Positions 11,073 through 35,845 of a stretch of DNA of 64,000 bases are shown here, piece by piece; within the stretch, counting starts at the first letter, position 1, and every line of letters begins with the position of its first letter. The translations under genes and the position numbers were made by a program. A model generated the notes under the pieces. It saw nothing but the letters and a program-made list of their open reading frames with translations, ran no database searches and had not been told where the DNA came from. The DNA comes from a virus (taxonomy: Duplodnaviria; Heunggongvirae; Uroviricota; Caudoviricetes): positions 25,067-89,066 of the IMG/VR virus record IMGVR_UViG_3300045988_003641; one strand, given 5' to 3'.

Positions 11073-19142
<8,070 letters not shown>

Positions 19143-20363: not shown

Positions 20364-22712
20364 ATGGCAGATTACAAATTGAGTGAGCTAAACTCAATCG
20401 ACACAATCCGTTCAGATGACCTTCTTCATGTCAGAGTTAAAAAGAGACCTAAAATGCTGGGTGATGAAGACCGTCGAATGACCTATCAAGATTTCTTAGC
20501 ATCTTTTAAGCTTGAAAGATTTGTTCAGATTGCTGGTAGCACTATGACGGGTGACTTAGGAATTGTTAAGCTACTTTACGGTGGCAAGGCTGTATTCGAC
20601 CCCACAGGCTCTTCTGAGATTACTGTTGGTGATATTTTAAAGACTTTTAAAATCAACGCAAACGACCTTAAACTAACTATTGCAGACGCTTCAAGGTCGG
20701 CAACTGTTTATCATACTTTGAATAAGCCAAGCCCTAATGAACTTGGGATGAGAACTAATGAAGAGAATGACGCAAGGTATGCAAGACTAGCCGTGAATAA
20801 TACCTTTAGAGGTACTCAAGCTATCCTCTCTGACAATGGAGCGCTCATTATTAAAAATATCACTCAAGGTGCTCCACTCTATCTTCGTGGTCAAGATGCA
20901 GATGGTACTAACAGATGGTATCTAGGTAATGATAATAGGGGTACAAATAATCTTGTATTGAAGAATGTAAAGTCTGACGTTTCAATTGCTATTTTAGAGA
21001 ATTTGGTGAAAGTCAACAGAACTCTTCAAATTGCTGGCCAAGTTCAGCCTTCAAGTTTTGCTAACTTAGATGCTAGGTATTTTACCCAGACAGCAGCTAA
21101 TCAGAGATTTGCGCAGTTAGCTGGTAATAACACTTTTACTGGTACTAACACTTTCTCTAATTTTGTTGCTAAGAAGAATGCTGAAGCCATCACTCTGCGA
21201 AATGTGGACACTGCTCCCTCTTTATATATCCGAGCAAGAAAGTCAGATGGGAATTATAAGTGGTATATTGGTAATGACGGTGATGAGAACATTTTAAAAA
21301 TCTATAACTATCTAACAGAAACACAAGTCTCACTAGGTAACACTATTGCCATGAGCAAAACAGTTCGAATTGATGGTCAAGTACAACCTTCTGATTGGAC
21401 TAACATTGATTCTAGATATATTCCGGCAGCCACTTTGAGTAATCTCCCTAAACTTAATGTTGCTAATACTTTCACAAATGTGCAGACTATTGTATCAGAT
21501 AATGAAGGTTTAGTATTAAGGAGCTTAACACAGGGACAGCCACAATATATCCGTGGTGTTGATACTGCGAATGTATCTAGGTGGTGGCTGGGCGTAGGAA
21601 CTGCTAATTCTAACGTGGTAACCTTGAGCAACAGCTTTTCAGGCACTCAAATTTCCCTAGAGCCAACATTGGTTAGTATGAATAAGAATCTGTATATTAA
21701 TGGGCAGGTTCAACCAAAAAATTGGTCTAACTTAGATGCTAGATACTTTGTTAAGACTCAGTTATTAAATCAATCTTTGATGACTGCATCTGTAGATAAT
21801 CTTGAAAACCCTTCAGCATTTAATCTTGGGTATTCAGGTTTTGTCAGAAACAACAATGTGACTAGTGGTCTGAAAGAGTTGGCAATTCATGTTGCTCACT
21901 CTAGTAAGACTGCTGCACACGCAAGGGGTATCTCTTTTGTATACGGTTCAAACGGTTTGGCAACATTCACCTATGCCTATGACAAAAATGGTGACTATGC
22001 CGGAGAGGCACAGATTTACACAACTGATTTTAAACCAACCCCTTCAGAGATTGGTGCATATACTAAAGCAGAAACTGACCAGAAATTTGCAACAGCAATT
22101 AGTGACTCTACAGACCTTAATAAAATCTATCCAGTAGGTATTGTAACTTGGTTTAACAGTGATGTTGACCCTAATACAGCACTACCTGGGTTAACTTGGA
22201 CGTATCTTAACAATGGTGTTGGTAGGACTATCAGGATTGCAGCAGCAGATGGTTCAGATGTTGCTACAACAGGTGGTTCAGACTCTGTGGTGTTATCTGT
22301 TGGTAACTTACCGTCACACACCCATAGTTTCTCTGCTACCACTTCATCTTTTGATTATGGTACGAAGAACACTAATAGTACTGGTGCTCACACCCACTCA
22401 GTTAGTGGTACTGCTGCATCTGCTGGGCAACACGCACACAGAATTTCACAGGGTGACAACGCTAACGTTCCATCAGGTAGAGTTGCATCTTCGAACTCTG
22501 CTCAGACCCATGTTGGTTGGACTGAAAATGATGGTGCTCACACCCACTCAGTTAGTGGTACTGCTGCATCTGCTGGTGGACATGCTCACTCTGTAGGTAT
22601 TGGTGCTCACAGCCACACAGTTAGTGGTAACACTGGTGGTACAGGCTCTGGTTCAGCATTTAGTGTTACTAACCAGTTCTACAAGTTAATGGCTTGGGTA
22701 AGAACTGCTTAA
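20364..22712 (+). CDS. long tail fibre protein
   Basis: 782 aa; three ~100 aa internal repeats; C-terminal HxH repeat module paralogous to 19145-20317; ends ...AWVRTA. Confidence 0.65.
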   Translation: MADYKLSELNSIDTIRSDDLLHVRVKKRPKMLGDEDRRMTYQDFLASFKLERFVQIAGSTMTGDLGIVKLLYGGKAVFDPTGSSEITVGDILKTFKINANDLKLTIADASRSATVYHTLNKPSPNELGMRTNEENDARYARLAVNNTFRGTQAILSDNGALIIKNITQGAPLYLRGQDADGTNRWYLGNDNRGTNNLVLKNVKSDVSIAILENLVKVNRTLQIAGQVQPSSFANLDARYFTQTAANQRFAQLAGNNTFTGTNTFSNFVAKKNAEAITLRNVDTAPSLYIRARKSDGNYKWYIGNDGDENILKIYNYLTETQVSLGNTIAMSKTVRIDGQVQPSDWTNIDSRYIPAATLSNLPKLNVANTFTNVQTIVSDNEGLVLRSLTQGQPQYIRGVDTANVSRWWLGVGTANSNVVTLSNSFSGTQISLEPTLVSMNKNLYINGQVQPKNWSNLDARYFVKTQLLNQSLMTASVDNLENPSAFNLGYSGFVRNNNVTSGLKELAIHVAHSSKTAAHARGISFVYGSNGLATFTYAYDKNGDYAGEAQIYTTDFKPTPSEIGAYTKAETDQKFATAISDSTDLNKIYPVGIVTWFNSDVDPNTALPGLTWTYLNNGVGRTIRIAAADGSDVATTGGSDSVVLSVGNLPSHTHSFSATTSSFDYGTKNTNSTGAHTHSVSGTAASAGQHAHRISQGDNANVPSGRVASSNSAQTHVGWTENDGAHTHSVSGTAASAGGHAHSVGIGAHSHTVSGNTGGTGSGSAFSVTNQFYKLMAWVRTA

Positions 22713-25988: not shown

Positions 25989-26318
25989 TTAATCTGCCAA
26001 CCTTAAATTAAAATTAACACCAAATTTTTCACATACTTCCAACATATACTCAAGGGAGACATTACCAGTGAGATGAATTATGTTGGACACACGAGCCTGA
26101 GAGATACCACAAATTTTAGCAACTTGCTCTTGAGAAAGACCTCTGGATTTAATCTCTCTCTTAAAACGATGTGCAACGAAGTCTCTCATTTCGTCTACAT
26201 CCATTGGACAAATATAACTCTCCATTTCAGCCTCTCTATCAGCCTCCCAATCATCTTGTGGGGCATAAGGGTCAAAAACCTCATTCATCTTTCTTCTTCC
26301 GTTTGCGTGAAGTATCAA
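25989..26318 (-). CDS. HTH DNA-binding protein (putative regulator)
   Basis: 109 aa; C-terminal helix-turn-helix-like segment LSQEQVAKICGISQARVSNIIH. Confidence 0.4.
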   Translation of the reverse strand: MILHANGRRKMNEVFDPYAPQDDWEADREAEMESYICPMDVDEMRDFVAHRFKREIKSRGLSQEQVAKICGISQARVSNIIHLTGNVSLEYMLEVCEKFGVNFNLRLAD

Positions 26319-26922: not shown

Positions 26923-26951
26923 AAAATAAGCTATAACACCTGACTTGTCAA
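26923..26951 (-). promoter_or_regulatory. sigma70-like promoter for 26878-start gene
   Basis: minus-strand TTGACA-N17-TATTTT. Confidence 0.4.
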
Positions 26952-26994
26952 CAGACTTTATAGCTTATTTGGCAGATTTTTTATAAGGCTACTG

Positions 26995-27368
26995 CCATCC
27001 TTCCATACCACACCTCACCCAACCATACCATGCCTTACCAGACCGCACCTTGCCTCATTAAAAGACCCTCTTAAAAGACCTTTTAAAAAGGTAAGTCTCA
27101 TTTTAATGTAGCTGAGACTAACTACCCGCACCGAACCTCACCTGACCTGACCGCGCCATACCTAACCGCGCCTTACCACACCTCACTTAAAAACCCTATG
27201 AGATACTCTATCGAATATAATTTAAAGACTCTTAAGTGATGTAATCGAATTTTTATGTAGCTCCGATTAACTACCCGCACTTTACCAAACCTCACCCTAC
27301 CCTACCAGACCTTACCTAACCGCGCCGTACCTCATTAAAAGACCCTCTTAAAGACCTTTTAAAAAGGA
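26995..27368. repeat. structured intergenic repeat array A (3 modules)
   Basis: three ~60-bp C/A-rich tracts (26995-27057, 27128-27187, 27277-27334) alternating with a TTAAAAGACC-containing motif (27057-27091, 27187-27241, 27335-27368) and hairpins (27094-27119, 27243-27268) each followed by AACTACCC. Confidence 0.85.
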
Positions 27369-27383
27369 GCCTCCGAAGAGGCT
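27358..27383 (-). terminator. rho-independent terminator of two-gene cassette
   Basis: minus strand AGCCTC-TTCG-GAGGCT then CCTTTTT. Confidence 0.6.
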
Positions 27384-27394
27384 ACCTAGTCAAC

Positions 27395-27835
27395 TTAGAA
27401 AGGTTTTCTACGTTGCTTGTTAATGTTAGCTTTCATAGCAGCTAAATGGTTTTGCTGTTCAATTAGTCGTGAACGTTCTTGATGGCTAAGTACCATAGTG
27501 TTCACATTCTCAATCGCTTGAGTGGCTTGCTTTAAAGCACGACCAATCTTACCAGACATTTTACGTTTTGCAATAGTTGCTTGATGCTTAGGTTCAACCA
27601 CACGATAACCAACACCCATTGAAGCAACCAGATAAATCTTCTCTTCTTTAAGAAGCTTCTCAATAAACTTCTCAAGTCGATTTAAGCGTGTAAGTGCGTA
27701 AGCTTTCATTTCATCTTCGTACTTAACAATGTCACCTTGATAAGTTGGCTTCACAATACCTAAGAAGGTATCCATCTCAGAGTGTGATACAGTGTCACCG
27801 TAACTAAACTTTGCTGCTAATGCTTTTGTATTCAT
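27395..27835 (-). CDS. hypothetical protein (cassette gene 2)
   Basis: 146 aa, basic C-terminus; no motif recognised. Confidence 0.4.
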   Translation of the reverse strand: MNTKALAAKFSYGDTVSHSEMDTFLGIVKPTYQGDIVKYEDEMKAYALTRLNRLEKFIEKLLKEEKIYLVASMGVGYRVVEPKHQATIAKRKMSGKIGRALKQATQAIENVNTMVLSHQERSRLIEQQNHLAAMKANINKQRRKPF

Positions 27836-28520: not shown

Positions 28521-28807
28521 TACTACCATCCACCCATACCGTGCCACACCACACCGGACCGTACCATGCCCAACCCTACTACACCAGACCTTATTAAAAG
28601 ACCCTCTCCAAAGACCTTTTAAAAAGGTAAGTCTCATTTTAATGTAGCTGAGACTAACTACCCATACATTACCGCACCATATTATACCCTACCCCACCAT
28701 ACTTCACTGCACCGAGCCACGCATTACATCACTTAAAAAACCTTTTCAAAGACTCTTAAGTGATGCTGGTGAGTACCCGTTGGTTTATGCTGCTCAGTAT
28801 ACTCACC
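28521..28807. repeat. structured intergenic repeat array B (2 modules)
   Basis: C/A-rich tracts 28521-28590 and 28664-28731; TTAAAAGACC motif 28591-28627 and hairpin 28628-28663 near-identical to array A copy 27057-27127; second hairpin 28768-28807. Confidence 0.85.
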
Positions 28808-31078: not shown

Positions 31079-31594
31079 TCAACTTAGTTTTGCAAACTCT
31101 CCGTGGAGTTTTACAGCAGCTTCACAGTAAGCTTTATGGGCTTCTTCTTCCGTTGTGTATGTTCCTATATGTATAGTCTTACCATTATGGTTAATCTGGG
31201 CTACCCACTTACCAGACTTGCTTCTACTTGTGCCTTTTAAGTTTTTTGATGTTCTAGGTTGTCTCCTATTAGACATGTTCTGTTCTTTTGTGGCCTCTCT
31301 TAAATTGTTCCAAGCGTTATTCAAGCCATCTCCATCTTTGTGGTCAATGTGTTTATCAGGCCACTTGCCTGTCATCCAGAACCAAGCAATTCGGTGATTA
31401 CCTGTCCTGTATCCTAAAATCTGTGTGTGCATATACACACCAGACCTTGTGCGCTTAATTGCTCCGGCTTGGCTTCCAATAACCACCCTACTACTATGTG
31501 GAGGTCTACCAATCCATGTTAAGACCCCTGTTTCGGGGTCATAATCTAACCAAGACTTTAACTGTTCATGTGTGAATCCACAATCTCTCATCAA
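31079..31594 (-). CDS. HNH endonuclease with AP2-like DNA-binding domain
   Basis: 171 aa; HNH-like HIDHKDGDGLNNAWNNL; C-terminal KSGKWVAQI...GTYTTEEEAHKAY resembles AP2 domain of HNH homing endonucleases. Confidence 0.55.
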   Translation of the reverse strand: MMRDCGFTHEQLKSWLDYDPETGVLTWIGRPPHSSRVVIGSQAGAIKRTRSGVYMHTQILGYRTGNHRIAWFWMTGKWPDKHIDHKDGDGLNNAWNNLREATKEQNMSNRRQPRTSKNLKGTSRSKSGKWVAQINHNGKTIHIGTYTTEEEAHKAYCEAAVKLHGEFAKLS

Positions 31595-34290
31595 TGTACC
31601 TCATACCAGCTCTTACCAACCTTACCTGTGCCAGTTACAAGCGTCTCACTCTTCAAACCTAAATTCTTAGATGCCTGACCATACATCCAGTCAGTTATGG
31701 CTTTAACTTCTTGAGTCATACTTTCTGGGCATTCCCAACTGTTTTCATCGTGGTATGCCAGCAAAAGCCTAGCACCGATTGCTGGTTTTCGTCCATTTAA
31801 TTTTGTCAATCCTTCTTCACATGCTCTTCTACAAGCAAGATTAATTGCCTCATTTTGAATCTGAGCCTCTGAACCCATGAGCAAATAATTCAATAACTTA
31901 TGTGGAGATTTACACCACAACCAAGCTCCAGCAACCTTTACAAAACCACCTTTAGAGATTGCAGCAGTCTTACCAAATACCTCTTCAAGTGCCTTTTTAG
32001 TTGCTTTGTAGTCAGCTTCCAAGTCATCTAGCAGCTTTTTAATTTTAGGCAAACGAATAAAGTAAGTCTGTTTAGTCAGCGCACCTTCCTGAGTAGTTGC
32101 AGCTTTAATCGTCTTAGCAAACTTCTCATCACCTGCACCGAACAGCAGTGCATAGATACCATTCTTAGCTTTCTTACGACCCTTGCTAATCTCATGAAGA
32201 AGATTCTCATCCTGAGTAGCTCGACAAGTCAAGATGTCCTGCTCATCGTTCAAGTTAAAGTAAATACTGTTCAGTGTATGTGCATCAGTCCCTGAATAGA
32301 CAACGTACAGGTCATTCTCAGAGTCATAGCGAAGGTACTTATCAATCTCTGGGTTGAGGTACTCATCAAAGTGTTTACAGTAATAGCGTCCATCTTCTTG
32401 ACGAATGAACTCAATTTCTTCTTTACCTTGCGTTACCGCTTTGGTGAAGTCTTTATCACCCATAAAGTTACAAAGAAGAACTAGCTGGGCTGAGTTCATG
32501 TCTACAGAGACAACGTTAGTACCTTCCTCACAAATCCACACTGCCCTCATTGGTTCCCCATAGACAGCAGCACCAGACGGTACGTTTACAATACCATACT
32601 GTGTCATACGTCCAGTTGAAGTACCAAACACCATTGCACCAGCACTAAGGCGACCATCAGGACGAATCTGGTTCAACCAACCTTTTTCATCATCCTTTGA
32701 GTTCTCAATAGTTCTGCGTCGGTGCATCAAAGTGTAGTATTTAGCAATCTTCTGTCCAAGCTCACCTTCAATCGTATCGTAAGATGATTCAGTAAGTTTT
32801 GGTGAAGTACGGATTAAGCAAGGCTCAAGCAAATCTGTGTACTTCTTCACAGACCAGTTATGCTCAATGTACTGGACGCCTTCGTGTTCAACATAACTCA
32901 AACCACACCGCTCAACCATTTCCTGCCACTTAGGATGCTTTGTAATCATCTTTTTATTGTCTTTGAAACGACAAACTTTGACAGGGCGACCATCAGAGTC
33001 TTTCTTGTAGTTCCAGTCATCTGGAATCCAACCAACTGATTTCAAGTAGTCTTTAACAACTGCTACCTGAGTCATACGAGAAACTTCAAACTCAATTGGT
33101 GTATATGGTGCATCAATCAAACCTGTGTAGCGACTTGACTCAAGTTCAAAGTGGTTAACAACGTGGCTGTTATAGTACTTCACAGTTTTGACTGTTTTTA
33201 CTGGCTTCCAGTCTTTGCATTTCTTACCAATCTTTGCGTTCAACTCATTGCAAATTGCACGAGCATCCTTCATTGCTACAAAGCCTTCCTTGTACTCTTC
33301 ACCAGTTACAGAGTTGGTTGGTGTATAGCAATTCCTTTTTTCAATGTTAAAAATCTTTGTAGTTGGCTTACCAAATGGTTTGATTTCGTATGTCTGCATC
33401 TCGCCATTACGTACCTGCTGACGATACTTTGTCTTAGGGTACTTGGTAATTCTTTTCAGTCCATCTGCATGACCAAATGTTTCAACATACTCATTCCAAG
33501 CTTTTGCAAACTCTTCTCCAGTGACTTTACCTTTGGTCTTAATAGTTGGAGGTAGATGTGGTTCAACCTCTGAAGCAAGCTCATTAGTCAACTTGTCAAG
33601 TTCCTTTACATGGAACTCCATAAGCTCTTTATCAGCTTTCCAACCATTGATAGCTTGTTGACTCATCCAGAAAGATGTTTCTTTAGCTCGCATGTAGGTT
33701 TCATAAGTGTCTATGCCACACTTCTTAAGCTTGAGATACTCATTATCAAGTGCCCGTTTAGTTTTGGCGTTAATACGGATATCTTCTACAACACGAGTGA
33801 AGATTTCTGCATTCCACACACCCCAATGTTCAATCTCTGGTTTACGAACACCAACACGAGCACCCCATGCAGCCAAGCCATGAGCACCTTTATAACCCTT
33901 TGGAGTTGGTCTATCCATCCACTGAACACGAGACTGGATAAGAGAATCCTGAAAGAAATTACTCCACGGCTTACACTTTGGATTATCAAAGTTCCATAAA
34001 TCCGGTGCAATGTGATTGAAAACCCACCAGTCATAACCTAGACCATTATGAATGCAAAGACGTTTTGCCTTTAACGCAAACTCAATACCTTCACGTAAGC
34101 CACCCTTAATGTACTTGGTATACTTGTGACCGAGGATAGGCTCATCTGTAAAGACCCATACAGGTGGCTCTTCATCGTCAGATTTATAGTCTGCGAAAGC
34201 CATTACGTGCACTTTAGTGAACTCAAGGAGTAAACCATCAGTTTCTGTATCACCAACTAAATGTAAGTTTTTAAAATCTACGTTTTCCAT
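31591..34290 (-). CDS. DNA polymerase, family A, with 3'-5' exonuclease domain
   Basis: ~900 aa; Exo I motif DTETDGL near N-terminus; start set at internal ATG preceded by AGAGGGAG ribosome-binding site (ORF track gives 34320). Confidence 0.85.
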   Translation of the reverse strand: MENVDFKNLHLVGDTETDGLLLEFTKVHVMAFADYKSDDEEPPVWVFTDEPILGHKYTKYIKGGLREGIEFALKAKRLCIHNGLGYDWWVFNHIAPDLWNFDNPKCKPWSNFFQDSLIQSRVQWMDRPTPKGYKGAHGLAAWGARVGVRKPEIEHWGVWNAEIFTRVVEDIRINAKTKRALDNEYLKLKKCGIDTYETYMRAKETSFWMSQQAINGWKADKELMEFHVKELDKLTNELASEVEPHLPPTIKTKGKVTGEEFAKAWNEYVETFGHADGLKRITKYPKTKYRQQVRNGEMQTYEIKPFGKPTTKIFNIEKRNCYTPTNSVTGEEYKEGFVAMKDARAICNELNAKIGKKCKDWKPVKTVKTVKYYNSHVVNHFELESSRYTGLIDAPYTPIEFEVSRMTQVAVVKDYLKSVGWIPDDWNYKKDSDGRPVKVCRFKDNKKMITKHPKWQEMVERCGLSYVEHEGVQYIEHNWSVKKYTDLLEPCLIRTSPKLTESSYDTIEGELGQKIAKYYTLMHRRRTIENSKDDEKGWLNQIRPDGRLSAGAMVFGTSTGRMTQYGIVNVPSGAAVYGEPMRAVWICEEGTNVVSVDMNSAQLVLLCNFMGDKDFTKAVTQGKEEIEFIRQEDGRYYCKHFDEYLNPEIDKYLRYDSENDLYVVYSGTDAHTLNSIYFNLNDEQDILTCRATQDENLLHEISKGRKKAKNGIYALLFGAGDEKFAKTIKAATTQEGALTKQTYFIRLPKIKKLLDDLEADYKATKKALEEVFGKTAAISKGGFVKVAGAWLWCKSPHKLLNYLLMGSEAQIQNEAINLACRRACEEGLTKLNGRKPAIGARLLLAYHDENSWECPESMTQEVKAITDWMYGQASKNLGLKSETLVTGTGKVGKSWYEVH

Positions 34291-34320
34291 TTTTACTCCC
34301 TCTAAAATCATTAACCTCAT

Positions 34321-34547
34321 ACATTACTGCAAAAAATTATAAAAAGCAAGTTGACAATGCACTTGACAAGGTGTTAATCTTTGCGAAGTGGGTTTTTACT
34401 TAAAAGGTTACTTAACAGTTTAACTATACAGATACTTTAAATCTCTTAAAAGATTATTTAATAGCTTTTAAAAAGCTTTAAAGTATAACGTATAGAATAC
34501 GTTAAGATAAAAGATTAAAACTTAATAGTTACTTAAAAGAGGCTTAC
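34321..34547. promoter_or_regulatory. divergent early promoter region
   Basis: AT-rich 227-bp gap between divergent operons; perfect TATAAT on minus strand (34336-34341); TTGACA hexamers on plus strand (34351, 34364). Confidence 0.45.
34486..34504. promoter_or_regulatory. palindromic candidate operator
   Basis: perfect inverted repeat TAACGTAT-AGA-ATACGTTA, ~45 bp upstream of start codon at 34548. Confidence 0.5.
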
Positions 34548-34970
34548 ATGCAGAAAATGTTTGTTCACCCAGACATAGCTGACTTTGTTAGAGCTTTGCA
34601 GAAGTTGGAAGAACTTGACATTGCTGCTCAACGGGAATATGCTCACCATCACAGGAGAATGGTTGATATACAACATGAAATAGAGTTGTCTGAAAACTAT
34701 GAAGATGACTTAAAATGCTCTGTATTTGAGCATATGAAAGATGTTGCTACAGCAAGACGTAAAGCTAAAGACACAGTTGCTTTACTGGATTCTCTTAAAA
34801 AGAGGTTGCAAAGTGGTACAGACCTGTGTAATCTAGCGTCACTGATTAACGATGTTGAAACTTCTTGGGATAGGCACTATTATCCACGTTCTGAAAAGAC
34901 ACTTGACTTTTCTTCATCAGAAAACTTAAAATGTTCTAGAAAGAAACTTAACCAACTGAGAGAGAAATAA
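34548..34970 (+). CDS. hypothetical early protein
   Basis: 140 aa, predicted helical; first gene of rightward operon. Confidence 0.35.
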   Translation: MQKMFVHPDIADFVRALQKLEELDIAAQREYAHHHRRMVDIQHEIELSENYEDDLKCSVFEHMKDVATARRKAKDTVALLDSLKKRLQSGTDLCNLASLINDVETSWDRHYYPRSEKTLDFSSSENLKCSRKKLNQLREK

Positions 34971-34971
34971 T

Positions 34972-35784
34972 ATGAATATCAATGTGGAACAGATGCTTGA
35001 AGAGAAAGGTGTTGATGAAGCATTCTTAATCAATGCCGTAGAAAGCATGGCTATGATTCTTCGTGGAAATAACTACACAGAACAGTTTATGCCTGCAAGC
35101 TACAACTTACCTGAAGACAAGTCTGATAGTAGTGCTTTTGCAGAGCAGGTTAATATGATGCTGTGTGACAAAACGCTTGCTTTAGCATCTATCGTTGTAG
35201 GTGTCGATGCTCTTGCAGAGTTCATTTTTTATGAGATGCAGAAAAATGACTATATTGCCATGACATCTGAAGAAAAAGACTCGCTGCTGCTCTTAGATAA
35301 TGATGAGCTAGTTGGCCTGTTAATTTCTTCAACGAGTGCTGTTATGGCTGCTCTTGAGAAGCGTATGAATGAGAAGTTGTCACGGTATGAAAAACTTGAT
35401 TGGGGCGTAGAAGAATTAAACCCACGAATCAAAGAGATTATCCAGCAAACCAAAGCTTCTTTGGAAGAAGCTGTGAAAGATGATTATGTAGCTGGCATAG
35501 AACCACTACAGGTGAAAGTTGCATTGATGATGCCAGCTATCTCTACGATGATGAATATCGTTGCATTAATCCAGCTTTCACAGATGATGGGTACAACCAT
35601 CGAGTTCATTGAGAGTATGACTGGTGGTGTCAGTATGCAAGCAATCAATGATGTTTTGGTGAGCATTGGAGCTTCAATCATTGAAGAGAAACTGCGCATT
35701 AACTTTGGTGACGATTTTGTGAAGCAAATCGCAGCTATGGCTGAAAAAGAACACTCACAGATTACCACTGAACAACTGCACTGA
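34972..35784 (+). CDS. hypothetical early protein
   Basis: 270 aa ORF. Confidence 0.35.
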   Translation: MNINVEQMLEEKGVDEAFLINAVESMAMILRGNNYTEQFMPASYNLPEDKSDSSAFAEQVNMMLCDKTLALASIVVGVDALAEFIFYEMQKNDYIAMTSEEKDSLLLLDNDELVGLLISSTSAVMAALEKRMNEKLSRYEKLDWGVEELNPRIKEIIQQTKASLEEAVKDDYVAGIEPLQVKVALMMPAISTMMNIVALIQLSQMMGTTIEFIESMTGGVSMQAINDVLVSIGASIIEEKLRINFGDDFVKQIAAMAEKEHSQITTEQLH

Positions 35785-35801
35785 GTTTTTATAAATATTA
35801 C

Positions 35802-35827
35802 AAGCCTCCTTAGTTGGGGGCTTTTTA
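35802..35827 (+). terminator. putative terminator
   Basis: imperfect stem AGCCTCC/GGGGGCT followed by TTTTT. Confidence 0.4.
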
Positions 35828-35845
35828 GTAATTAAGGGAGATAGA

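Follow-up and report, generated by a model that had tools for sequence, protein, structure and literature searches.

The interval between the DNA polymerase gene and the rightward replication operon

The window, that is, the whole 64-kb stretch of DNA analysed here, is a Felixounavirus genome (Felix O1-type phage). The gap of interest is flanked on the left by the gene of a family A DNA polymerase (31591 to 34290, minus strand), recognized from the ORF list and from the DNA polymerase annotation of relatives, and on the right by a rightward operon, as claimed in a first-pass annotation made from the sequence alone. The features listed there were all found in the sequence at its coordinates, among them an exact 8-3-8 inverted repeat (34486 to 34504), a TATAAT on the minus strand (34336 to 34341) and two plus-strand TTGACA hexamers (34351 to 34356 and 34363 to 34368). 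Its description of the gap as a divergent early control region was also borne out, by back-to-back sigma-70-type promoters conserved across genera. The interval is best explained as a back-to-back early promoter pair together with the 5' leader of the rightward replication operon.

In Felix O1, ORF96 (the polymerase), ORF101 and ORF105 were shown by RT-PCR to be transcribed within 5 minutes; the genome paper assumed divergent promoters in this gap and found none, and it stated that the mode of transcription regulation and the passage through many terminators were not known (PMC3185647). A search of the literature on transcriptomes, origins and intergenic elements of Felix O1 and Felixounavirus retrieved no direct data and no start-site mapping. 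Neither an RNA polymerase nor a known modifier of one is encoded by the phage.

The first two rightward genes (34548 to 35784, plus strand) encode a 140-aa protein of the Felix01p180 family and a 270-aa protein annotated as 'minor tail protein' (PHROG 4039, of unknown function, and PHROG 4251, respectively). The Felix01p180 family was found only in the Ounavirinae, with 9 clusters in a search of 5.8 billion proteins, and Pfam, PHROGs and PDB sequence searches gave no function for the 140-aa protein. Its AlphaFold model (pLDDT 72) is an all-helical helical hairpin for which Foldseek returned no PDB match at E <= 0.001. A PDB sequence search revealed no relative of the 270-aa protein, and its gene is dispensable, the fitness scores of the Bas63 homologue being positive; the Bas63 values used in this work were taken from the PhageMaP supplement, which gives scores neither for intergenic positions of Bas63 nor for the p180 homologue. 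A terminator-like hairpin followed by a T-run (35801 to 35828, plus strand), annotated as a terminator in phages ASO1A and Michonne, separates these two genes from those encoding a dNMP kinase and the primase/helicase. A scan between this terminator and the start of the primase/helicase gene yielded nothing above a 9/12 match.

Two predicted divergent early promoters

The comparison of relatives supports leftward transcription of the polymerase operon from a predicted promoter, P_L, which occupies 34321 to 34349 on the minus strand and is composed of a -35 TTGCTT (34349 to 34344), a 17-nt spacer and a -10 TAATGT (34326 to 34321). This architecture is common to 7 lineages. The -35 hexamer is invariant, and the -10 is found in five variants (TAATGT, TAAGGT, TAGGGT, TAGTGT and TAATTT), all of which retain T1, A2 and T6 and differ in the inner bases; the pattern conserved across the Ounavirinae is TTGCTT-17-TA(A/G)NNT. 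The TATAAT at 34336 to 34341, previously taken as the -10 of the polymerase, is located within the P_L spacer and was rejected in this role on both spacing and lack of conservation. Two TTGTCA hexamers stand 10 and 22 nt from it, with no -35 at 16-18 nt, and the hexamer is Felixounavirus-specific, the same position reading TTGAAAC, TTGAAGA or similar in Suspvirus, Mooglevirus and the related locus L079. As the leftward start site expected from P_L falls downstream of the in-frame ATG at 34320, the true polymerase start is likely the ATG at 34290 to 34288, which has a Shine-Dalgarno sequence, GAGGGAG, at 34296 to 34302 (minus strand).

The rightward promoter, P_R (34351 to 34380, plus strand), is of a 'double -35' class: a TTGACA (34351 to 34356) is separated by 18 nt from the -10 TAATCT (34375 to 34380), a second TTGACA (34363 to 34368) lies inside the spacer, and a TGT precedes the -10. 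P_R is invariant in the three genera Felixounavirus, Suspvirus and Mooglevirus, and homologues of the form TTGACA-17-TAnnnT followed by a G-rich start are found in L079, Arno162-like and Kolesnikvirus relatives, so that every relative examined carries a TTGACA-17/18-TAnnnT promoter with a G-rich start. P_R is also annotated as a promoter in phage ASO1A. The second TTGACA was considered as a separate -35 and discarded, since no -10 is found 16-18 nt downstream. In two related loci (L080 and L082), the hexamer homologous to it serves as the -35, and a loss of about 11 nt seems to have occurred in the Felixounavirus clade, which would use the upstream TTGACA instead.

The -35 hexamers of P_L and P_R, on opposite strands, are separated by 1 bp. 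On each strand the -35 and -10 elements are conserved and 16-18 nt apart, as is the case for divergent sigma-70 promoters. A generic sigma-70 scan flagged neither promoter, because both -10 hexamers are weak, and was left out of the evidence. Taken together, the conservation of these elements suggests that the host RNA polymerase would proceed leftward from P_L into the polymerase operon, with a predicted start at about 34313, and rightward from P_R, with a start site at about 34387.

The predicted leader of the rightward operon and its repeat array

With this start site, and given that no ORF of at least 40 aa lies within the segment according to the ORF list (a minus-strand ORF, 34533 to 34676, overlaps its last 15 nt only), the rightward transcript would begin with an untranslated leader of about 160 nt (34387 to 34547, plus strand; 23-26% GC). 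The identity of the leader to that of Suspvirus is 84-85%, versus 77% for the downstream coding sequence, and its conservation equals that of the polymerase N-terminal coding sequence.

Within the leader, about 11 units that end in WAHAG form an array, all on the same strand and spaced about 11-12 nt; the complete 8-mer YTTWAHAG starts at 34399, 34411, 34424, 34445, 34457, 34468, 34476, 34521 and 34532. WAHAG was observed 11 times, versus 2.6 in shuffled leaders (maximum 7 in 2000 shuffles). Neither the window nor the complete Felix O1 genome, where the motif is enriched at only a few places, contains a denser cluster of it than this array. The last unit, CTTAAAAG, overlaps the Shine-Dalgarno sequence (AAGAGG, 34537 to 34542) of the first rightward gene (ATG at 34548 to 34550), and the register of the array is maintained up to the ribosome-binding site. 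Arrays of 11 units were seen in four lineages (Felixounavirus, Suspvirus, Mooglevirus and Arno162), and in each of these 8 nt separate the end of the last unit from the ATG; such a context is not general among the ribosome-binding sites of the window. Clustered same-strand repeats in an easily melted region close to replication genes, as found here, are also features of AT-rich iteron-type origins.

A short palindrome, AGCTTTT-A-AAAAGCT (34463 to 34477, plus strand), is located directly upstream of the 8-3-8 repeat. Its hairpin is retained by RNAalifold, and in Suspvirus and a Felixounavirus-type locus (L008) position 34472 carries G instead of A, which turns one pair into U-G on the plus strand. 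A search of 33500 to 35500 with the Rfam 15 covariance models at a permissive E-value gave only chance-level snoRNA and IRES matches (E > 1). Folds of the whole leader call for care: the array motif comes close to self-complementarity, which inflates predicted RNA structure, and the near-palindromic unit yields long helices in every clade.

Conservation and pairing of the 8-3-8 palindrome

The main palindrome, TAACGTAT-AGA-ATACGTTA (34486 to 34504, plus strand), is built of two adjacent array units (..GTATAG and ..GTTAAG) and can be drawn as an 8-bp stem with a 3-nt loop. In the first-pass annotation it was described as overlapping a TAGAAT -10-like element. The TAGAAT is indeed contained in it (34493 to 34498), but has no -35 partner, and the conserved rightward promoter would start transcription about 100 nt upstream, which places the palindrome at about +100 to +118 of the predicted transcript. 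The start codon is 44 nt further downstream.

No second copy was detected in the window with up to 3 mismatches, and the palindrome is unique in the whole Felix O1 genome. Perfect inverted repeats with 8-bp arms and loops of 0-6 nt appeared in 9.2% of composition-matched shuffles of the gap (1.8% with a 3-nt loop), and the window contains 10 of them, about the number expected from base composition. By itself the palindrome is therefore unremarkable, and it is its conservation that lifts it above chance. It is present in Felixounavirus, Suspvirus and Mooglevirus and absent from the L079, Arno162-like and Kolesnikvirus leaders. The pair 34487/34503 is A-T in Felixounavirus and T-A in Suspvirus and Mooglevirus, and the pair 34489/34501 changes from C-G to T-A in the KPS64/Michonne group; neither was ever unpaired across 13 distinct sequences. 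In a further locus (L055), a perfect 8-bp stem is restored by a different outer pair (TTACGTAT-AGA-ATACGTAA). When, as a control, the partner position was slid by 1-3 columns, the paired fraction fell from 90-95% to 18-65%, the highest values being those at +-2. This covariation rests on two or three independent substitution events, and related sequences can exceed shuffle controls in a structure-free manner. Conservation is highest in the loop and the three inner pairs, with an invariant centre, and the outer arm positions vary; the TATAG unit is retained even in clades lacking the palindrome, and the KPS64 group has TAACAT in place of TAGAAT. These patterns are best explained if selection retained the ability of the palindrome to pair, and not its exact sequence.

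The predicted RNA hairpin has a free energy of -5.8 kcal/mol (z = -3.2 versus shuffles), with values of -4.9 in Suspvirus and -3.5 in KPS64, and is retained by RNAalifold; as single-stranded DNA it is as stable (-5.4 kcal/mol). In the minimum-free-energy fold of the whole leader the hairpin is replaced by a pairing of its 3' arm (34499 to 34506) with an upstream segment, CTTAACAGT (34411 to 34419). This alternative shows the same two covariations, and therefore the data fix no single structure. An intrinsic terminator or attenuator was discarded, since the stem, which includes 2 G-C pairs, runs into AGAUAAAAG, with neither a G+C-rich stem nor a U-run, and a terminator scan was negative.

A related module upstream of genes 41 and 22

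The arrangement described above for the gene 97 region recurs in Felix O1 upstream of gene 41, where a double TTGACA, a ACTTAAAAGG box and a CTTAWAAGAGGCWTAC ribosome-binding site are found. The gene-41 leader also carries an 8-3-8 palindrome, TCTTAAAA-GCC-TTTTAAGA (TCTTAAAAGCCTTTTAAGA), located 22-40 nt before the ATG; it is unrelated in sequence to the one studied here and is invariant in three genera. A second consensus TTGACA within the spacer occurs at exactly three Felix O1 sites, those of genes 22, 41 and 97, so that the promoter-leader module marks three operon starts, being weaker at gene 22. When IMG/VR was scanned with the exact pattern of the gene-41 promoter, no match was obtained, because most relatives carry TGTAGG where Felix O1 has TATAGG; the relatives of the gene-41 leader were gathered by a protein-anchored search.

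The palindrome could belong to a wider, undescribed cis-regulatory system of the Ounavirinae, an idea that we regard as unlikely. It would comprise promoters with two TTGACA hexamers 12 bp apart, YTTWAHAG leaders with 8-3-8 hairpins, and a 1.5-kb ORF-free 'depot' of units located outside the window, on which a phage factor would act to time or protect transcription of the main operons. That factor could be the HTH protein discussed below, which is needed for normal fitness of Bas63, or an RNA-binding protein.

Possible functions of the palindrome

The reading that we favour, tentatively and with a confidence somewhat short of even, is that the palindrome is a stem-loop in a regulatory leader RNA more than a classical repressor site. 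The rightward transcript would begin with the A+U-rich leader of about 11 YUUWAHAG units, the last overlapping the Shine-Dalgarno sequence; two neighbouring units, one of them effectively inverted, would fold in the RNA into the 8-bp stem with its 3-nt loop, and this structural element would act after initiation. The hairpin might be recognized by a protein, nucleate folding, or represent one state alternating with the pairing to the upstream CUUAACAG unit, and in any of these roles it would govern the translation of the replication operon, its stability or its read-through. A structure is favoured over a single operator sequence because the gene-41 palindrome shares the geometry and differs in sequence, and the register of the array with the Shine-Dalgarno sequence suggests a link to translation. 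The alignments demonstrate the constraint on pairing; a transcript that folds in this way in vivo and a regulatory output are what we infer. On the other side, the stem is weak, and weaker still in KPS64, and the array spacing of about 11 nt is near the DNA helical repeat and could indicate a role at the DNA level.

The palindrome had been attributed to a dimeric regulator, possibly the protein encoded at 25989 to 26318 (minus strand). This protein is a genuine helix-turn-helix (HTH) protein of the Cro/C1 type (Pfam HTH_3, 39 bits with a cut-off of 23; PHROG 1373; Felix01p155 in Felix O1 and gp35 in Bas63), and its start is likely an internal ATG giving 99 aa, as annotated in relatives, given that the homologues begin at MNEVFDPY. 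As an operator, the 19-bp repeat would be bound by a dimer of this protein, which would either block elongation from P_R or control a weak TAGAAT promoter; we consider this the most serious of the alternatives, yet an unlikely one. Operators of the 434, lambda and P22 type are inverted repeats with half-sites spaced to fit an HTH dimer, and an 8-3-8 repeat with half-site centres 11 bp apart would suit such a dimer, its dimensions being within the 14-20 bp length and 10-11 bp half-site spacing of HTH operators. Moreover, TAGAAT is the -10 hexamer of strong promoters elsewhere in the phage. The knockout of gene 35, the homologue in Bas63, lowers fitness to about -1.2 to -1.5, comparable to the polymerase and the primase, which implies that the HTH protein has an important target. 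In addition, its tblastn matches (259 records) were confined to phages that infect Escherichia, Salmonella, Shigella and Citrobacter, as do the three genera sampled with the palindrome. No phage of Erwinia, Pectobacterium or Hafnia was among them, and the relatives from these hosts are without the palindrome. Likewise, 259 records cover at least 80% of a 1.3-kb query centred on the gap. This co-occurrence, however, amounts to a single phylogenetic event.

Several other observations weaken the attribution. The only rightward promoter with support lies about 100 nt upstream of the site, which overlaps no supported promoter, and the TAGAAT within it has no -35. It exists as one copy in the genome, with none near the gene of the regulator itself. 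Its centre is conserved and its arms are variable, the reverse of an HTH site: positions +-6 and +-8 vary despite a nearly invariant recognition helix, SQ(A/S)RVSNI, and one of the only G-C pairs, the obvious specificity determinants, became T-A with the helix unchanged. An attempt to relate variants of the recognition helix to those of the palindrome was uninformative, as the helix is almost invariant (SUSP2 and KPS64 both have SQSRVSNI). Finally, since the gene-41 palindrome is unrelated in sequence, one protein cannot read both.

The palindrome might also have no separate function, being a by-product of two adjacent and partly inverted repeat units whose symmetry arose by template-switch mutation or by chance. 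In DNA palindromes, symmetric changes can also come from template switching (quasi-palindrome mutation). The 9% of gap shuffles with a perfect palindrome of such size agrees with this explanation, as do its composition of array units, its absence from more distant relatives that retain the rest of the leader and the only 2-3 evolutionary events behind the compensation. Nevertheless, we judge it rather improbable, because two pairs changed on both sides, a further outer pair was restored and none of the 13 distinct sequences shows a broken state; by our own rough estimate, based on how many positions changed, two such coincidences would have a probability below 1%. The paralogous gene-41 leader, with its palindrome of identical geometry, is also hard to reconcile with it.

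A further alternative, which we hold to be quite improbable, places the function in the DNA, the region being an architectural element or a transcription-activated origin in which the phased array would be coated with a protein of phage or host origin or form an R-loop and the palindrome a cruciform or single-strand hairpin. Such a region would resemble the origins of T7 and T4, in which a promoter adjoins AT-rich DNA, and the p6 complex of phi29, with its 12-bp period. The array lies in easily melted DNA, just past a strong early promoter, with the polymerase operon on one side and the primase/helicase operon on the other. GC drops to 26% here, and the cumulative GC skew has a local minimum near 34400, but the switch of the coding strand already explains this minimum. 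The units are all on the same strand, the motif is enriched at few places in the genome, and the single-stranded DNA hairpin matches the RNA in stability. The spacing peaks at about 11 nt in the leader and at 10.5 nt in a Felix O1 repeat region of 1.5 kb that contains no ORF, although the periodicity scores are moderate (4.8-6.5 of a possible 11). Recurrence of the module at gene 41, and more weakly at gene 22, suits expression control better than a single origin, the array is in register with a ribosome-binding site, and the leader contains no GTC primase-type site.

Least of all do we expect a second, factor-dependent promoter with the conserved core TATAGAAT as its -10 and incidental arms, even if TATAG(A) is conserved in palindrome-free clades, TAGAAT is the -10 of three strong promoters of the phage and the palindrome at 34463 to 34477 sits at the expected position of a -35 or activator site, because no clade has a -35 at 16-18 nt, the KPS64 group replaces the hexamer by TAACAT, and the conservation of TATAG is more simply that of a WAHAG array unit in register with its neighbours.

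Significance and comparison with known systems

Felix O1-type phages are classic Salmonella typing phages and widely used candidates for biocontrol and therapy. Our analysis provides coordinates for both predicted early promoters and a corrected likely polymerase start, situates the palindrome in a predicted leader and not in a promoter, and reveals at two further operon starts a promoter-leader module like the one found here. If these elements of the leader are regulatory, they would be a first handle on early control in the subfamily and useful parts for phage engineering; if they are not, the palindrome would be an ordinary conserved intergenic hairpin.

With the Cro/CI operators of lambda, 434 and P22 the palindrome has in common a 19-bp inverted repeat, half-sites about one helical turn apart and a phage-encoded HTH protein. 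Those operators overlap the -35 or -10, occur in several related copies and are usually imperfect, with the half-sites as the most conserved part, whereas the palindrome described here is single and perfect, has the promoter about 100 nt upstream of it and shows its strongest conservation at the centre.

The leaders of T4 replication genes include that of gene 32, with a structured element and UUAAA-type repeats reaching the ribosome-binding site, that of gene 43, with a hairpin, and the RegA sites. The likeness lies in an A/U-rich leader of a replication operon, in which a small structured element stands upstream and UUAAA-like units extend into the Shine-Dalgarno sequence. In contrast to T4, no single-strand-binding or RegA-like protein was identified here, the two downstream proteins are helical without an assigned function, and the ATG is 44 nt away from the hairpin, with no overlap. 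The nut boxA-boxB signals of lambda and the put sites of HK022 are leader antitermination signals, and the region resembles them as a cis element past the early promoters of long operons with internal terminators (such as that at 35801 to 35828), and in a sequence, CTCTTAAAA, similar to the nutL boxA with a hairpin nearby. The differences are a 3-nt loop in place of a GNRA-like pentaloop, the lack of an Rfam match and that no N- or Q-like protein was identified. Membership in the nut-like boxA class was rejected, as the matching bases upstream of CTTAAAAG are the most variable spot in the leader.

The primary origin of T7 consists of tandem promoters and an AT-rich region, and oriF and oriG of T4 of a promoter and an unwinding element. 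Here a strong early promoter with tandem -35s is followed by 160 bp of 23-26% GC, and the phage has a T7-like set of polymerase, primase-helicase and exonuclease; unlike those origins, the module is found at three operon starts, and the skew signal is confounded by transcription direction. Finally, among divergent sigma-70 pairs, that of Arno162 has the same layout, with 5 bp between the -35 hexamers versus 1 bp here, and what distinguishes the pair described in this work from the usual ones is the second consensus TTGACA that P_R carries in its spacer.

Results

Over 200 Felixounavirus genomes matched the 1.3 kb centred on the gap at 96-99.5% identity, and Suspvirus and Mooglevirus did so at 77-83%. 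A family-A DNA polymerase is encoded leftward of the gap, and the rightward operon comprises, in order, genes for a 140-aa protein of unknown function, a 270-aa "minor tail protein", a dNMP kinase, a 66-aa protein, a primase/helicase and an exonuclease. In the Felix O1 genome paper divergent early promoters were assumed between ORF96 and ORF97, although no promoter-like sequence was found; transcripts of ORF96, 101 and 105 appeared within 5 min, and temporal control and the passage of many terminators were left unexplained (PMC3185647). The PHROG 4251 label of the 270-aa gene (34972-35784) looks doubtful, as the gene lies in an early replication operon, no PDB relative was found for its product, and its homologue in the Felixounavirus Bas63 had positive fitness scores in the PhageMaP knockout screen. 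GenBank entries MG065664, MG065668 and GU169904 carry 97-98% identical Felixounavirus sequence under the names Campylobacter phage A132/A126 and Staphylococcus phage SA1, and are probably contaminated or mis-assigned records.

All the elements that the first-pass annotation had listed for the gap were present at the coordinates given, and its description as a divergent early control region was right, since two -35 hexamers stand back to back, 1 bp apart; the promoters themselves had to be corrected. No -35 stands at a workable distance from the TATAAT proposed as the polymerase -10, and Suspvirus, Mooglevirus and the metagenomic relative L079 have other sequence in its place. The leftward promoter, on the minus strand, shows a conserved TTGCTT-17-TA(A/G)NNT, which has five -10 variants in seven lineages, T1, A2 and T6 being common to all, and which would place the leftward start near 34313. 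Together with a Shine-Dalgarno GAGGGAG, this predicted start site favours the ATG at 34290 over that at 34320 as the polymerase start; the latter is the start in the mechanical ORF and in one of the two annotations of the polymerase in Felix O1. The rightward promoter (34351-34380, plus strand) consists of TTGACA at 34351, an 18-nt spacer containing a second TTGACA, and TAATCT preceded by TGT. Homologues of the form TTGACA-17/18-TAnnnT, followed by a G-rich start (GAAGTGGG, GGAAGTCC or GGGGGCAAT), were found in every relative examined; judging from this conserved promoter, transcription would begin at about 34387, leaving some 160 nt (34387-34547) untranslated as a leader.

This leader has a GC content of 23-26% and contains no ORF of at least 40 aa, one minus-strand ORF overlapping only its last 15 nt. 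Its identity to Suspvirus was 84-85%, compared with 77% for the 140-aa coding sequence; its conservation thus equals that of the polymerase N-terminal coding sequence and exceeds that of the downstream gene. The leader is built of copies of the degenerate unit YTTWAHAG, all on one strand (in order, CTTAAAAG, CTTAACAG, CTATACAG, CTTAAAAG, TTTAATAG, TTAAAAAG, CTTTAAAG, ..., CTTAATAG, CTTAAAAG), spaced by 11-13 nt or about twice that, with a periodicity peak near 11 nt (near 12 nt in Arno162). The WAHAG core is present in 11 copies, whereas shuffles had 2.6, and at most 7 in 2000 trials. No other such cluster exists in the window, and nowhere else in the complete Felix O1 genome are the units packed as closely: the array reaches 9 per 150 nt, compared with a background of 0.34. 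It is kept in the palindrome-less leaders of the Arno162-like phages, L079 and Kolesnikvirus. Where the array has 11 units, as it does in four lineages, its final unit overlaps the Shine-Dalgarno and stops 8 nt short of the ATG, a ribosome-binding-site context that is not general in this phage. A 3-nt hypervariable spot (34441-34443; ATC, AAC, AAG, AAT, AGC, ACC or AGT) in the otherwise almost invariant leader sits just 5' of the invariant CTTAAAAG unit at 34445.

There is just one other large cluster of the leader-type repeat, outside the window: at 12306-13927 of Felix O1 (NC_005282), a stretch of about 1.5-1.6 kb between convergent transcription units with no ORF of at least 36 aa is packed with CTTAACAG, CTAACAAG, CTTTACAG and CTCTATAG units, which lie about 10.5 nt apart and for the most part on the minus strand. 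A different repeat is found in the leftward cluster, in its two longest gaps (26990-27400 and 28640-28760, minus strand): 3-4 copies of a unit of about 130 nt, each with CTTTTTAAAAGGTCTTTTAAGAGGGTCTTTTAATGAGG, a long G-periodic tract (GGTAAGGTCTGGTAGGGTAGGGTGAGGTTTGGT...) and GGGTAGTTAGTCTCAGCTACATTAAAATGAGAC, and no ORF, possibly an ncRNA or a protein-binding repeat.

Felix O1 has exactly three promoters of the form TTGACA-N6-TTGACA, with hexamers 12 bp apart. They precede genes 22, 41 and 97; the last is the module in the gap, and the other two lie outside the window (Felix O1 21515-21664 and 11269-11458). The gene-41 and gene-97 modules share GTTGACAAWGCACTTGACAAGGT, a ACTTAAAAGG box and a near-identical CTTAWAAGAGGCWTAC-ATG ribosome-binding site. 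The gene-41 leader has four repeat units (P < 0.0005) and its own perfect palindrome, TCTTAAAAG-C-CTTTTAAGA, with an 8-bp stem and a 3-nt loop, 22-40 nt before the ATG, built from a CTTAAAAG unit and its inverse. A 7-6-7 hairpin, AGATATC-TTTCTG-GATATCT, precedes it, so that two perfect inverted repeats are adjacent (Felix O1 21599-21643). This leader is almost invariant across Felixounavirus, Suspvirus and Mooglevirus, and both inverted repeats are invariant.

Discussion

We tentatively prefer, at somewhat less than even confidence, to read the palindrome at 34486-34504 as a stem-loop in a conserved leader RNA: the repeat-built transcript would fold at the palindrome and act after initiation. 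The palindrome reads TAACGTAT-AGA-ATACGTTA in Felixounavirus, (T)ATACGTAT-AGA-ATACGTA(A)A in Suspvirus and Sf13, TTACGTAT-AGA-ATACGTAA in the relative L055, and ATATGTAT-AAC-ATACATAA in KPS64, Michonne, L061 and L078. Across 13 distinct sequences the pairs 34487/34503 (A-T to T-A) and 34489/34501 (C-G to T-A) were never unpaired, a covariation that rests on two or three events. Sliding the partner by 1-3 columns lowered pairing from 90-95% to 18-65%, slides of ±2 giving the highest values. RNAalifold retained the hairpin. Its stem has a modest stability (-5.8, -4.9 and -3.5 kcal/mol for the three types; window z = -3.2). In the minimum-free-energy fold of the whole leader, the 3' arm pairs not locally but with an upstream CTTAACAGT (34411-19). 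This copy changed in parallel (CTTAACAG, CTTTACAG, CTTTATAG), so that its pairing with the 3' arm shows the same covariation; the three-way pattern fits alternative pairings that the RNA might adopt, with the same two tree branches underlying it.

A post-initiation role for the leader is plausible, because a terminator-like hairpin with a T-run (35801-35828) follows the second rightward gene, before the dNMP kinase and primase/helicase genes, and a scan from there to the primase/helicase start gave no match better than 9/12; early primase expression would thus need read-through from the rightward promoter. Knockout of the primase gene lowers fitness in Bas63.

That the palindrome is an operator bound by the Cro/C1-type protein encoded at 25989-26318 (minus strand), as had been suggested, is less likely, though it is the most probable of the rival readings. 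The protein is a genuine Cro/C1-type HTH protein, and its Bas63 homologue, gene 35, a "putative transcriptional regulator", scored about -1.2 to -1.5 in the PhageMaP screen, like the polymerase and primase. By tblastn the protein was found in 259 records, all phages of Escherichia, Salmonella, Shigella or Citrobacter plus a few mislabelled records, with none from Erwinia, Pectobacterium or Hafnia phages; a search with the 1.3 kb centred on the gap likewise gave 259 records covering at least 80% of that query, and the palindrome is absent from the examined relatives of the excluded host groups. In favour of an operator, this amounts to one clade-level co-occurrence. Against it stand the palindrome's position, its centre-conserved pattern and its single copy (no second one at up to 3 mismatches in the window, and none elsewhere in the Felix O1 genome); the recognition helix SQ(A/S)RVSNI is all but constant among the palindrome variants. 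In addition, the palindromes of the two paralogous leaders agree in geometry while their sequences are unrelated, which is more in keeping with a structural role than with a shared operator. Neither position nor conservation pattern supports an operator overlapping a -10. A further candidate for an operator or hairpin, with no sequence relationship to this palindrome, lies upstream of the cluster containing this regulator (26930-26975, minus strand), where a perfect 9-bp inverted repeat, AAGCTATAA...TTATAGCTT, brackets a TTGACA promoter at 26951 whose -35 falls within TGACAAGTCA.

By itself the palindrome is not unusual: shuffling the gap at matched composition gave a perfect 8-bp-arm repeat with a 0-6 nt loop in 9.2% of cases, and the 10 such repeats in the window match the prediction from composition. 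That it has no separate function is a rather improbable explanation, and a DNA-level architectural element or origin is less probable still. An internal promoter is very improbable: the palindrome consists of two successive array units, ..ACGTATAG, whose end lies in the loop, and ..ACGTTAAG, and the TATAG unit is kept in palindrome-less clades (ATGTATAG, AGATATAG, TTCTATAG), which explains the conserved centre with no need for a -10 element.

In summary, the palindrome is an as yet uncharacterised element of a familiar kind, and it is the double -35 promoter class, together with the phased 8-mer arrays, that would merit experiments.
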